Shown piece by piece: positions 31,095 through 35,708 of a stretch of DNA of 64,000 nucleotides. The stretch lies in NCBI GenBank assembly GCA_019186845.1, contig JABARW010000018.1:3180-67179 (forward strand), in the 5' to 3' direction. The notes under the pieces were generated by a model. It saw only the letters and a program-made list of their open reading frames with translations. It was not told where the DNA came from and searched no databases. Origin of the DNA: Planctomycetota bacterium. Its GTDB lineage: Bacteria; Planctomycetota; UBA8742; UBA2392. The number at the start of each line of letters is the position of its first letter. Within the stretch, counting starts at the first letter, position 1. Both the position numbers and the translations under genes were made by a program.

Positions 31095-33641
31095 ATGAAG
31101 CAGATTTCCCTCGGGCTGGTGCTCTTGCTGCTGGCCTCCACGCTGGGCGCGCAGGCCGAGCTGATTCGCGCCAAGGCCGTCCTGGAGCCGGTAGACCCCA
31201 AAGAAGGCAAGGCAGTCCCCGGCGGCGAGGTGAAGCTGCGCCTCCAGTTCGAGGTAGACAAGGGATTTCACGCCTACCACAAGGACAACCCGGGTTACAG
31301 CAAACCCATCAGCGTCAAGTTCAGCGAGCTTTCGGGCCTCACGGAGGTGGGAGAGGCCCAGTGGCCGAAGTATCACGAGGGCCACCCCGACCCCAAGGAC
31401 CTTTCCTGGGTCGAGTACGAACTCAGCGGGACCTTCGAGATTGTGTACAACTTCAAGGTGCCGCTCGCGTCCAAAGGCGCCCTGAAAGTCTCGGGCAGCT
31501 ACGAGGCCCAGGTCTGCGACGAGAAGGGCTGCACTGATCGCAGCGGAGAGTTCAGCGCCAGCCTTGACGTCTTTGATGCGCCCCGAGCCACGCCAGGCGG
31601 GGGCGACAGCGAGGCGCTCAAACGCCTCGAAGATAAAGTCGAAGCCCTGGCCCAGGAGCTCGGGTCCCATAAGAAGGACCTCGAAGCCATCCGCAAGGCC
31701 AACGAGGAGCTGAACAAGGCCCTCAAGGACTTCATCAAGTCGCAGCAGGAGAAGGCCGGGCCTTCGGGCGAGAAGGACGACCACGGGTTTTATGTCAGCT
31801 ATGATTTCGCCATCGCCGAGGCGCGCAAGCAGGGCAAGCTTTTGCTGATTGACTTCAACGGCGAGTACTGAACTGCATGCCGCCGCATGGAGCGTGAGGT
31901 CTTCACGCTGCCGAAAGTCAAAGAGCTGCTGGCGAAGTTTGTTGTGGTGGGCCTGAAGACGGACATCAAGGACTCACGCATCAACGAACTCTACGCCAAG
32001 TACAAGGATCCTGAAGATCCTACGATCCCCTATTACGTGGTGCTGGACCACAACGAAAAGGCCCTGGGCGGCATCCATGCCACCCTGGGCCCGGAACCCA
32101 ACGGCGACGATGACAACGGCTTGCCCCCCTCGGCCTTCGTGAAGTTCCTGGAGGAAATGAGCGCCAAGGGCGTAACCGGCGACAAGCCCGTCGAGCCCAA
32201 GCCTCAGCCCAAACCCGCCGCGGACAAGCCGCCCGCCGCCCAGCAGGGTGATGCTCAGGCCGAAGATGAGGGGCCCACGTCATTCACGGCCCTGTGGAAG
32301 TTTCTTCTGGAGGCCTTCGTCGTCGGCTTGATCACGCTGCTGACACCCTGCGTTTTGCCCGTACTGCCCCTGACCATCGGCTTCTTCGTCAAGCAGGCGG
32401 AGCAGAAGCGTCCGCCATTGATCACGGCCGGCATCTACTGCGGCGTCATCCTTGTGAGCTTTACATCGATTGGAGTGCTGGCGTCCCTGCTGCTGGGAGC
32501 TTCCGGCGCCGGAGATATCGCGCGCAGCTGGTGGCTCAACCTGGGCCTCGGCATCCTGTTCATTGTGCTGGCCCTGAGTTTCCTCGGGCTGTTTGAACTG
32601 CGCATGCCCACCTTCCTTACTTCCAAGGCGGGTCAGGCCCAGTTCCAAGCCAACAAGGCGGGCAAGGGCTATGTCGCCGCGATGATCAGCGGCACCTCGT
32701 TCACACTGATTTCGTTCTCCTGCACGGGGCCCTTTGCGGCCTTTGTGCTGGCCCGCGCGGCTTCGGGCGATGTCATCATGCCCGCCTTGGGGATGTTCGC
32801 CTACGCGTCAGGCATGGCCCTGCCTATTTTCATCATGGGCCAGTTCCCCGCGCTGATCAAACAACTGCCCAAGTCCGGTGGCTGGATGAACGCCATCAAG
32901 GTGGTGTTTGGCCTCATCGAGCTGGCCCTGGCCTTTGCCTACCTGGGGTTTGCCGAGCTGGCGCTTCGGGGCTCTGCCCCGGAGATCTTCTCCAAGAATC
33001 TGGTCATTGCCGTGTGGGTGGCCTGTTCCGTGGCGGCGGGCCTGTACCTCTTTGGCCTGTTCCGGCTCCCCCATGACCATGACCGCGTTGAGCAGATTGG
33101 GGTGTTCCGCGCCATCTTTGCCCTGGCTTTCTTCTGCCTGGCGGCCTTCATGCTGCCCATGCTGTTTGGCGCCCCGCTGGGCAACTTCGGAGCCGTCATA
33201 CCACCCGGCGCCAAGGACGCCCCCTCGGCATTTGGCGGCAAGGGTGGCGGCGAAGGCGGCGACCATCTCAAGCCACCCGTCAAGTCCATGGACCAGGCCA
33301 AATCCGAAGCCGCCAAGACGCAAAGGCCGATCTTCATCGACTTCACGGGCCCTGCGTGAAAGGACTGCCTGTGGGTTGAGGAGAACATTCTCCACAGCCC
33401 CAAAGTCAGCCGTGTGCTGAATGACAAGTTTGTGTTTGCCGAGATGTGGGTGGAGCGCGGCAGTGAGGGCGAAGCCGTGCTGAAGGGTCTGAAGTTCAGC
33501 TCAGCCCTGCCCCAGTACGCCGTGGTCGACGCGGAAGGCAAGCTCGTCTCGCGCTATGACCGGCCCCAGAATGTTGCGTCCATCACGCCGGACGCCTTTG
33601 CCGCGTGGCTGGAAGAGAGCCTCAAGTCGTACCGGCCCTGA
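31095..33641 (+). CDS. DsbD-like thiol:disulfide reductase with two predicted selenocysteines (signal peptide, DsbD-alpha-like domain, coiled coil, Trx-like UxxC, DsbD/CcdA TM core, Trx-like UxxC)
   Basis: One reading frame (31095, 31887 and 33414 share the same phase) is interrupted only by TGA at 31869..31871 and 33357..33359. Readthrough gives DFNGEY-U-TAC-RRME and DFTGPA-U-KDC-LWVEE. TM core Cys motifs are LLTPCVLPVLPL and ISFSCTGPF. The alpha-domain motif is QVCDEKGC. A strong terminator appears only after 33641. Confidence 0.75.
31891..31909 (+). promoter_or_regulatory. Candidate bacterial SECIS hairpin 1
   Basis: A-GCGTGA-GGTCT-TCACGC-T: a 6-7 bp perfect stem with apical loop GGUCU, starting 20 nt after the TGA at 31869. 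Confidence 0.6.
33367..33399 (+). promoter_or_regulatory. Candidate bacterial SECIS hairpin 2
   Basis: Lower stem CTGTGG/CCACAG (33369..33374 with 33392..33397). 5' bulge GTTG. Upper stem AGGA/TTCT (with one G.U pair). Apical loop GAACA about 26 nt after the TGA at 33357. Alternative foldings exist. Confidence 0.4.
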
Positions 33642-33659
33642 CCGTGCCGCACGCATGAC

Positions 33660-33694
33660 CGGGAAGCCGCCTGCAGGGCGGCTTCCCGCGTTTT
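33660..33694 (+). terminator. Rho-independent terminator
   Basis: CGGGAAGCCGCC-TGCAG-GGCGGCTTCCCG (12-bp perfect stem) followed by CGTTTT, 19 nt after the final TGA of the DsbD-like gene. Confidence 0.75.
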
Positions 33695-33767
33695 GGGCCG
33701 GTTCTTTGGGCGTTCTTTTTGGTCAAACGTCAGGAAAGGGGTCGTTATCTCTGGTAAACTCAGGGGG

Positions 33768-35708
33768 ATGCCGACGGGTGAAGACACACAGAAGGTCGTC
33801 AAGGCCGCTCCCGAAGACCTGGCCAAGGCCACGCGCACGATTGAAATCGGCGGCCCCCCCGCAAAGCGCATCTATGACCAGATGTCCCTGGTCGCCCTGG
33901 TGCTGGACGAGGAACTGCGCATCGTGCGCTTCAACGCCGCCGCCGAGCGCGCCCTGGGCAAGCGCTTTGACCAGGTGCTCGGCCGCCCCTGCTTTGACGC
34001 CCTGCCCGACCTCTCTGAAATCGCCGACTGCAGGGCCTGCGAGCGGGCCATTGCCATGGGCATTCCCACGGAGGTCAAAGACGTCGAAATCTACGACCAC
34101 GCCCGGGGCAAGCGCTTCACTTTCGATTTTCAGATTGACCCCATCGTGGGCGACAACGGCAAGCTGGCCGGGGTATCCATGATCGGCCTGGACGTGACCG
34201 AACGCTTCAAGCTGCGCAAGCGCCTGGCCCGCCACAACGAAGACCTCAAGACCCTGCACGCCGTCAGCAATGCCCTGCGCAAAACGATGGATCTCGAGAA
34301 GGCCTTCGTCATCATCGCCAGCGCCCTGACCAGCGAGGCCGGCGGCGGCTACGACAAGGCCCTCATCCTCGTGTGCGACCAGGACCGCGAGCACCTGCTG
34401 GGGCGAGTTGCCGTGGATTCCCTGGGGCTGGACACGGCCGAGGGCATCTGGCGTTCGCTCACCACACATGACGGCCCCCTGGACAAGATGCTGGAGTCGG
34501 CCTTCCCGGTCCTGCATCGCCGCTGGGGCGCCCTGACCGAAAAGGTCAAGCGGGTGAAGGTGCCTCTCGACTCCCCCGACAGCCTCATGATTCACGCCCT
34601 GCGCACGGGCGAGCCCGTCACACACGAAACCTGCTCCGAACAGGGGCTCGAACACCTTCACCTGCACCCGACGCTGGCCGAGCATTTCCCGATGACATGC
34701 TTTGCCGCCGCGCCGCTGAAGACGGATCAGGACGCAATTGGCGTGGTCATTGTCGATTCCTCCAGCCGCCCCCGGCGCTTTTCGCCCGAGCGCCTGAACA
34801 TGCTCAAGATGTTCGCCAGCCAGGCCGCGCTGGCCATCAACAACGGCCTGATTTTCCAGAACGTTCTCGCGCGAGCCCAGAAAGACAGCCTGACTGGCCT
34901 TTACAACCACGGCCACTTCCAGGAGACCCTGCGCGCGGAAATCGAGCGCGCCCGCCGCTACGGCCAGCCCCTGAGCGTGGTCATGCTCGACATCGACCAC
35001 TTCAAGAAATTCAACGACAGCTACGGCCACCAGACCGGTGACAACGTGCTGCGCCAGACCGCGCAGGTCCTCACGGCCGGCGTGCGCGTCACCGACCTCG
35101 CCGCGCGCTACGGCGGTGAAGAATTCGCCCTGCTGCTGCCTCACACCAGCCTCGAACATGCCATTGACCTCGCGGAGCGCACCTGCGCCGGCGTCGCGCG
35201 CAAGGTCGTCGTGGCCGGCCCCAAGGGTGAACGCCTGGGCGTTACGGCAAGCTTCGGCGTTGCCACTTTCCCAGTTCATGCCCAAAGCGCGGCCGAACTC
35301 GTCAGCCTGGCCGATGAAGCGCTCTACATGGCCAAGAAGAACGGCCGCAACCAGGTACGCAGCGCCTCGGAGGTTCTGGCCCTGACGCCCCAGCAGCGCG
35401 AGGCCGTCAAGCAAAAGCACTCCGCGCCTGCGGCTCCCCCGGCCCAGACCGCCCCCGCCCCCCTGCCGGCCGAGGCGGCAGGCGGCAAAGATTCGGCACT
35501 GCCCCCCACTGTCGTGGAGCTGCCTCCGCGCTACCAGCAGCGGCTGGAGGCGGCCATTGCCGAGCGTCACCAGCAGAAGTCCTCCCGTGACCGAGACACC
35601 GTGCGCATCGTGAAATCCACGCCGGAGCAGCCGCCGCGCCGCACCCAGAAGCGGCGTGAAGATGAGGGCAAGCCGCGGCGGCGCTCGGGCCGAACGCGCA
35701 AGCCCTGA
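33768..35708 (+). CDS. PAS-GAF-GGDEF diguanylate cyclase with a Pro/Arg-rich C-terminal tail
   Basis: GLYNHGHFQE...DIDHFKKFNDSYGHQTGD...RVTDLAARYGGEEFALLLP (an I-site RxxD plus GGEEF). Start taken at the ATG at 33768 (MPTGEDTQ). Confidence 0.85.
   Translation: MPTGEDTQKVVKAAPEDLAKATRTIEIGGPPAKRIYDQMSLVALVLDEELRIVRFNAAAERALGKRFDQVLGRPCFDALPDLSEIADCRACERAIAMGIPTEVKDVEIYDHARGKRFTFDFQIDPIVGDNGKLAGVSMIGLDVTERFKLRKRLARHNEDLKTLHAVSNALRKTMDLEKAFVIIASALTSEAGGGYDKALILVCDQDREHLLGRVAVDSLGLDTAEGIWRSLTTHDGPLDKMLESAFPVLHRRWGALTEKVKRVKVPLDSPDSLMIHALRTGEPVTHETCSEQGLEHLHLHPTLAEHFPMTCFAAAPLKTDQDAIGVVIVDSSSRPRRFSPERLNMLKMFASQAALAINNGLIFQNVLARAQKDSLTGLYNHGHFQETLRAEIERARRYGQPLSVVMLDIDHFKKFNDSYGHQTGDNVLRQTAQVLTAGVRVTDLAARYGGEEFALLLPHTSLEHAIDLAERTCAGVARKVVVAGPKGERLGVTASFGVATFPVHAQSAAELVSLADEALYMAKKNGRNQVRSASEVLALTPQQREAVKQKHSAPAAPPAQTAPAPLPAEAAGGKDSALPPTVVELPPRYQQRLEAAIAERHQQKSSRDRDTVRIVKSTPEQPPRRTQKRREDEGKPRRRSGRTRKP

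Follow-up and report, generated by a model that had tools for sequence, protein, structure and literature searches.

The DNA analysed here, a stretch of 64,000 nucleotides (nt) from contig JABARW010000018.1 of a Planctomycetota bacterium (hereafter the window), carries a gene for a DsbD-like protein whose reading frame contains two in-frame UGA codons. The hairpin at positions 31889 to 31912, downstream of the first of these codons (UGA 31869-31871), is very probably a selenocysteine insertion sequence (SECIS) for that UGA, as judged from sequence comparison. This assignment is supported by the alignment of the UGA with a conserved cysteine (Cys) codon in orthologues, by the hairpin itself, by the strict association of the hairpin with the UGA, and by the selenocysteine (Sec) machinery encoded in the same genome. 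Binding of SelB to the hairpin and insertion of Sec at UGA 31869 are proposed by analogy with characterized systems. The features of the locus are listed in Table 1.

Table 1. Features of the DsbD-like locus, in window coordinates.
Feature	Position	Strand	Description and basis
DsbD-like gene, 848 codons, with in-frame UGAs U259 and U755	31095..33641	+	Single frame from ATG 31095 to TGA 33639 with two TGA read through
First in-frame UGA, predicted Sec259 in FNGEY-U-TAC	31869..31871	+	Invariant Cys (TGC/TGT) at this codon in 11 orthologues, TGA in 21
Probable SECIS hairpin	31889..31912	+	GG-AGCGUGA-[GGUCU]-UCACGCU-(G)-CC; RNAfold folds, Sec/Cys energies, synonymous freezing
Second in-frame UGA, predicted Sec755 in FTGPA-U-KDC	33357..33359	+	TGA at the aligned codon in most of the family, TGC in six members
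Second post-UGA hairpin, two-tier	33363..33407	+	GGGUUG-A-GGAGA-[ACAU]-UCUCC-A-CAGCCC; -22 kcal/mol, z = -2.69
True stop TGA	33639..33641	+	End of the frame; homology to relatives stops at ...SYRP
Intrinsic terminator-like hairpin and U run	33657..33694	+	13-bp G+C-rich stem followed by UUUU; -34.8 kcal/mol, z = -2.9

Position and fold of the hairpin

From position 31860 to 31919 the forward strand reads GAGTAC TGA ACTGCATGCCGCCGCATGG AGCGTGA GGTCT TCACGCT GCCG. In the transcript, AGCGUGA (31891-31897) and UCACGCU (31903-31909) form a perfect stem of 7 base pairs (bp) around a 5-nt apical loop, GGUCU (31898-31902), and the stem can be extended by pairing G31889 and G31890 with C31911 and C31912, leaving G31910 bulged. 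The first nucleotide of the perfect stem, A31891, lies 20 nt past the TGA, and the spacing between the UGA and the loop is 26 nt (31872-31897), placing the GU of the loop at nt 31-32 counted from the U of the UGA. The original prediction, made from the sequence without database searches, had described a perfect-stemmed hairpin 20 nt past the TGA that could be extended through a bulged G and GG/CC pairs, and both the coordinates and the RNAfold structures agree with that description. It had also described an A-U-closed GGUC(U) loop; the loop sequence and the A-U closure stand, with the correction that the loop is a 5-nt GGUCU and not a 4-nt GGUC. A 4-nt GGUC loop of the fdhF kind, formed through an A31897-U31902 pair, was considered and rejected, as it would leave U31903 bulged out and shift the perfect stem out of register; a partial G31898.U31902 pair does appear in the ensemble.

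The hairpin is the minimum free energy structure returned by RNAfold in contexts of 28, 47 and 65 nt, with an energy of -8.9 kcal/mol for the 19-nt core and -12.8 kcal/mol for the 28-nt element. In contexts of 62 to 300 nt the pairing probability within the stem is 0.82-1.0, and for the G-U-C in the middle of the loop the probability of being unpaired is 0.96 or above, so no more stable competing fold buries the loop. The folding check suggested together with the original prediction therefore came out in its favour, the hairpin holding with its GU exposed in contexts of up to 300 nt. Another short stem-loop, CAUGC-CGCC-GCAUG (31876-31889), lies in the interval from the UGA to the SECIS; it was also considered as a part of the element and was set aside, being present in this genome only and unconserved in relatives.

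The hairpin accompanies UGA and is absent from Cys orthologues

Each of the two UGAs stands where a CxxC motif would have its first Cys. At the first UGA the Cys orthologues carry the nucleophilic Cys, and the CxxC corresponds to alignment columns C44 and C47. Relatives were searched with stop codons read through, and the codon aligned to U259 was extracted from each. TGA occupies this codon in the window's genus (three genomes) and in a second genus of its family (four genomes), and TGC or TGT occupies it in 11 genomes of the family. Fourteen more TGA forms were obtained from a metagenome scan and from truncated open reading frame products, the latter recognizable as MER[EDG]VF... proteins whose start ATG lies within the hairpin and which stop at the second UGA. 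The metagenome pattern scan contributed 7 loci, one of its two peptide patterns demanding a Cys codon at the Sec site, and a genome search extended to all of the taxonomic family returned only the 23 genomes already known. Loci L120-L136 come from wastewater and sediment samples.

The hairpin is kept in all 21 orthologues with TGA and in none of the 11 with TGC or TGT; conservation in orthologues that keep the UGA, on which the original prediction had staked its reading, was thus found throughout. When the 19-nt core was forced into the structure, the first 12 Sec forms gave -8.6 to -8.9 kcal/mol and the nine Sec forms added later -5.5 to -8.9 kcal/mol, compared with +0.9 to +11 kcal/mol for every one of the 11 Cys forms (Mann-Whitney p = 1.6e-5 for the first 12 Sec forms against the 11 Cys forms). 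The domain tree places the Sec forms in two well-supported clades approximately 1.2 amino-acid substitutions per site apart, with the Cys forms in between, and both Sec clades carry an identical 19-nt core.

The freezing of the core extends to synonymous sites. Among the first 12 Sec forms no synonymous alternative occurs for any of the stem codons GAG, CGT, TTC and ACG, whereas 17 of 19 flanking codons with an invariant amino acid use two or more codons in the same 12 sequences (hypergeometric p = 0.0017). At the level of protein, the residues encoded by the 5' stem and the loop are R-E in the Sec forms (with a few R-D, R-G and S-E), and the same positions vary freely in the Cys forms, which have KQ, KE, KT, RS, AR, AT, KF and KR. 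Such a pattern is the mark expected of an RNA element laid over a coding sequence and, by this comparison, seemingly required only where the UGA is present. One Cys form that branches beside the window's clade (L026, from relative G008) reads GAG-AAA-GAG-GUC-UUC-ACC-CUG, retaining the loop and part of the 3' strand, which could be the remnant of a SECIS left after a change from Sec to Cys.

Sec machinery and further candidate selenoproteins of the genome

The genome to which the window belongs (89 contigs, 3.74 Mb; its named relatives are uncultured Planctomycetota metagenome-assembled genomes) encodes a complete Sec machinery. This consists of a tRNA-Sec with anticodon TCA (73.7 bits), SelA (543 bits), a SelB with the SECIS-binding winged helix SelB-wing_3 (PF09107) at 662-707, and SelD, which itself contains an in-frame TGA within HGAG-U-GCK. 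The tRNA-Sec gene lies approximately 0.7 kb from selA on the same strand (C40:20962-23138).

Scanning the genome brought up more genes in which an in-frame TGA takes the place of the redox Cys, encoding AhpC/TSA, Redoxin, SCO1/SenC and Thioredoxin proteins, and a hairpin follows every one of these TGAs. The peroxiredoxin hairpin is CUUCACC-GGUCA-GGUGAAG, with its GU at +29/30, and the SelD hairpin is GACCU-CGUGC-AGGUC, with its GU at +31/32. Together with the hairpin after UGA 31869, these two elements of the same genome share a 5-nt loop, a G-U at loop positions 2-3, a stem of 5-7 bp and a GU located at +29 to +32; they differ in their stem sequences and in the loops themselves (CGUGC and GGUCA, compared with GGUCU here).

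At least seven further candidate selenoprotein genes with TGA at a redox Cys were counted in this genome (G000: C11, C14, C17, C21, C26, C27, C52, C2), including a peroxiredoxin/BCP, three Redoxin/AhpC-like proteins, an SCO1/SenC protein, a thioredoxin (Trx)-TPR protein, one of unknown family, and SelD. By their distance from the UGA, the loops form a nearer class at +20 to +24, with AGUU or GUG, and a farther class at +28 to +34, with NGUNN or GUG. In the Trx-TPR gene (C14) the loop is 8 nt long, begins at +26 and belongs cleanly to neither class.

Comparison with known SECIS elements

The current model of bacterial SECIS elements (PMC13188914, summarising the bSECISearch model of Zhang & Gladyshev 2005) describes an apical loop of 3-9 nt on a stem of 4-16 bp, a G within the first two loop positions, usually as G[G|U], a distance of 16-37 nt from UGA to loop, and an energy of -7.5 kcal/mol or lower. 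The window's hairpin agrees with all four rules, having a 5-nt loop on a 7-bp stem, a loop that starts with GG, a spacing of 26 nt, and an energy of -8.9 to -12.8 kcal/mol. The original prediction had placed the distance between loop and UGA within the bacterial range, and the model bears this out. There is no essential difference from the bSECISearch consensus; the particulars of this element are that its stem is extendable by only 2 bp across a bulge, in its own genome, and that the stem is unusually invariant over two deep clades. Beyond structure, the UGA stands at a Cys-aligned codon, the host has the Sec machinery, and the element is kept and lost together with the UGA.

The likeness to the fdhF element of E. 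coli is partial. The fdhF sequence that accompanied the original prediction is correct, TGACACGGCCCATCGGTTGCAGGTCTGCACCAATCGGTCGGTA being found with 100% identity within fdhF in 5419 of 5426 E. coli genomes, as is the 43-nt stretch that begins at the fdhF UGA and contains GGUUGCAGGUCUGCACC (also 100% identical in 5419/5426). In this minimal SECIS (GGUUGCAGGUCUGCACC, nt 15-31 after the UGA), the bulged U is nt 17, the loop G-U is nt 23-24, and the spacing is 11 nt (PMC8659212). What the two elements have in common is a GGUC(U) loop between A and U with its G-U exposed. The loop GU lies at +31/32 here and at +23/24 in fdhF, 8 nt further downstream, and the only bulge here is the 3'-side G31910, which is absent in most relatives, compared with the 5' U17 of fdhF. 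The hairpin thus fits the general bacterial SECIS model and is not a copy of the fdhF type.

Evidence against the SECIS assignment and alternative explanations

Several results weigh against the reading of the hairpin as a SECIS. The bulged U17 on the 5' strand of the fdhF element has no counterpart here, AGCGUGA being fully paired, and the fdhF helix starts 11 nt past the UGA, compared with 17 nt (G31889) or 19 nt (A31891) in the window; of the resemblance to fdhF first proposed, the GGUC(U) loop therefore survives, and the bulged U17 and the 11-nt spacing do not. No SECIS family matched anywhere in the window when Rfam was searched at the gathering score, and at E <= 10 the sole match within 31840-31960 was an unrelated small RNA model on the opposite strand and outside the hairpin (11.4 bits, E = 7.5), so that the check by covariance model, suggested with the original prediction, yielded no Rfam family for the hairpin.

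Nor were the compensatory substitutions found that had been looked for in orthologues: among 21 Sec-form sequences, 17 of them distinct, none of the nine pairs changes on both sides. Over the 17 distinct sequences 94% of cells pair and four of the nine pairs are invariant, and the variants that do occur in the stem consist of an A-U to G.U change in the closing pair (L128-L130), an A.C mismatch at pair 31892/31908 (L131), and a double change that gives A.C at pair 31893/31907 (L127), all three of which weaken the helix and do not compensate. One subclade has the loop variant CGUGU. Compensatory substitutions are missing because the stem hardly varies, and since the codons that overlap the stem specify conserved residues, with most of the stem falling on their first or second positions, few compensatory routes exist, so the lack of covariation is only weak evidence against a SECIS.

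The thermodynamic signal is likewise limited, the 65-nt segment having z = 0.10 relative to shuffled sequences and the 28-nt core z = -2.56. Among 20,000 random positions of the same genome (63.8% G+C), 5.5% have an uninterrupted hairpin of equal or greater stability that follows SECIS-like rules, and 0.5% have a.?G[GU] loop on a stem of at least 7 perfect Watson-Crick pairs. By itself the hairpin is therefore not rare in a G+C-rich genome (0.5-5.5% of random sites) and only modestly unusual, so the case depends on its context and on the comparison of orthologues.

The same evidence bears on the alternatives. It is conceivable that UGA 31869 encodes Sec and that the hairpin is not the element bound by SelB, which would be recruited otherwise; the hairpin might then slow the ribosome, hinder release factor 2, or simply follow from amino-acid constraint on the peptide MEREVFTL. 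This explanation gains from a helix without covariation, from comparable hairpins at 0.5-5% of random sites, and from the G-less loop of the hairpin after the second UGA, by which the loop rules of this lineage may differ from the model. We nevertheless regard it as improbable, as there is no other conserved structure from the UGA to +60 (the upstream hairpin at 31876-31889 being genome-specific), the freezing of synonymous sites in the stem is unexplained by a purely amino-acid constraint, the Cys forms accept other residues at the same positions, and the SelD and peroxiredoxin hairpins present GU loops at the same distance from their UGAs.

A genuine stop at this TGA, with the locus representing a broken gene or three genes and the hairpin being incidental, is very unlikely. 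It accords with the public gene callers, which split the locus, but TGA occurs at the exact Cys-aligned codon in 21 sequences of two clades, always in frame and with the hairpin, the middle piece would have to start within a thioredoxin fold, and the genome contains the full Sec machinery along with at least seven other genes with UGA at a redox Cys. Least credible of all is the recoding of UGA to a standard amino acid (Trp, Gly or Cys), whether genome-wide or through near-cognate decoding. Such codes occur in other bacteria and nothing specific points to one here; against it, the gene itself ends in TGA and is followed by a terminator, SelA and SelB are encoded without internal TGA, and the in-frame TGAs that were found sit at the redox Cys of thiol oxidoreductases, which is the signature of Sec.

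With the hairpin taken as the SECIS of UGA 31869, the decoding of this codon can be modelled by analogy with Moorella and with E. coli, the paradigm for this process (PMC13188914, PMC8659212). A complex of SelB, GTP and Sec-tRNA(Sec) would bind the exposed loop GGUCU, chiefly at G31899 and U31900, through the last, C-terminal winged-helix domain of SelB. Once the UGA occupies the ribosomal A site, the tethered SelB would deliver Sec-tRNA(Sec) in competition with release factor 2, and residue 259 would become selenocysteine, the putative nucleophile of a UxxC motif in the first periplasmic Trx-like domain of a DsbD-type disulfide reductase. As the element lies inside the coding sequence, the peptide MEREVFTL would be fixed along with it.

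Architecture of the DsbD-like protein

The open reading frames at 31095-31871 and 31887-33359 lie in one frame, and the protein read through both UGAs has the domain order DsbD_N-like, Trx-like (UTAC), DsbD transmembrane core, and Trx-like (UKDC). Pfam matches correspond to DsbD_N at 40-147 (weak), Thioredoxin_2/7 at 243-303, DsbD_TM at 401-615 and Thioredoxin_7 at 730-813. None of the NCBIfam selenoprotein models reaches its cut-off for this protein, TsoB scoring 155 of 805 and trx7_PDZ_seleno 48 of 300. Selenoproteins with a thioredoxin fold and UxxC have long been known, including a 'thiol:disulfide interchange protein' family, PF13098 (PMC1794560, PMC13188914), and the window's protein resembles the known Thioredoxin_2-type members in having such a domain with UxxC. 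In contrast to these, its domain belongs to a DsbD-type membrane protein of 848 residues that has a second UxxC domain; the catalogue in the review PMC13188914 lists no full DsbD-type protein carrying two Sec.

Public gene callers cut the DsbD-like protein at both UGAs (records P0004-P0022). The resulting products of 478-490 or 650-657 residues begin at the ATG inside the SECIS (MEREVF...) and end at ...FTGPA or ...FTGYN, and they are named 'thiol:disulfide interchange protein' or 'sulfite exporter TauE/SafE family protein'. Orthologues in other genera (relatives G003-G022) have two to three tandem DsbD_N-like copies and open frames of 1000-1500 residues, compared with the single copy of the window's gene.

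The hairpin after the second UGA

The second in-frame UGA is followed by a two-tier hairpin (Table 1) that is kept in six relatives with energies of -21 to -25 kcal/mol and two covarying pairs. Its loop lies at +29 to +32, the same distance as in the first SECIS, and contains no G (ACAU, or AAAU and AUA in relatives), so it fails the bacterial SECIS rule that asks for a loop G. In other genera of the family a different hairpin, GGACCGU-GGA-ACGGUCC, takes this place after the second UGA, and there the loop lies at +21 to +23 (L027-L042, L127-L131; alignment A4). Three pairs of this hairpin change on both sides in 22 cells, a level reached by none of 500 shuffles. With different hairpins in different genera, one protein family would contain two unrelated SECIS designs at the same codon.

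Implications

Taken together, the two UGAs suggest a broader reading that we put forward tentatively and hold to be possible rather than probable, in which Sec occupies both periplasmic Trx-like domains of a DsbD-type transporter and two structurally unrelated SECIS elements are located on one mRNA. Should the G-less second element prove functional, the SelB of this lineage must read features that the current bacterial SECIS model does not include. Were this joint reading true, the identical 19-nt SECIS in two clades interleaved with Cys forms would indicate that Sec is ancestral and was repeatedly lost to Cys, opposite to the general trend of Cys-to-Sec replacement that has been reported (PMC1794560).

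The first element, on the assignment made here, works as a textbook bacterial SECIS and changes no concept; the two-Sec DsbD architecture and the G-less second hairpin are separate and more unusual findings. What the assignment would provide is a well-documented SECIS from Planctomycetota, a phylum from which no selenoproteins are described in the selenoprotein catalogues and reviews that were compared, and the repair of an annotation in which public pipelines have split one gene in three and misnamed it. The co-occurrence of Sec and Cys orthologues in one bacterial family, and even in one genus, amounts to a natural experiment, and the contrast between them would illustrate how a SECIS within a coding region constrains RNA and peptide alike.

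Downstream of the DsbD-like gene lies a PAS/GAF/GGDEF (diguanylate cyclase-type) gene at window positions 33693-35708, and this synteny is conserved in relatives and in most of the metagenomic loci (L128-L136).

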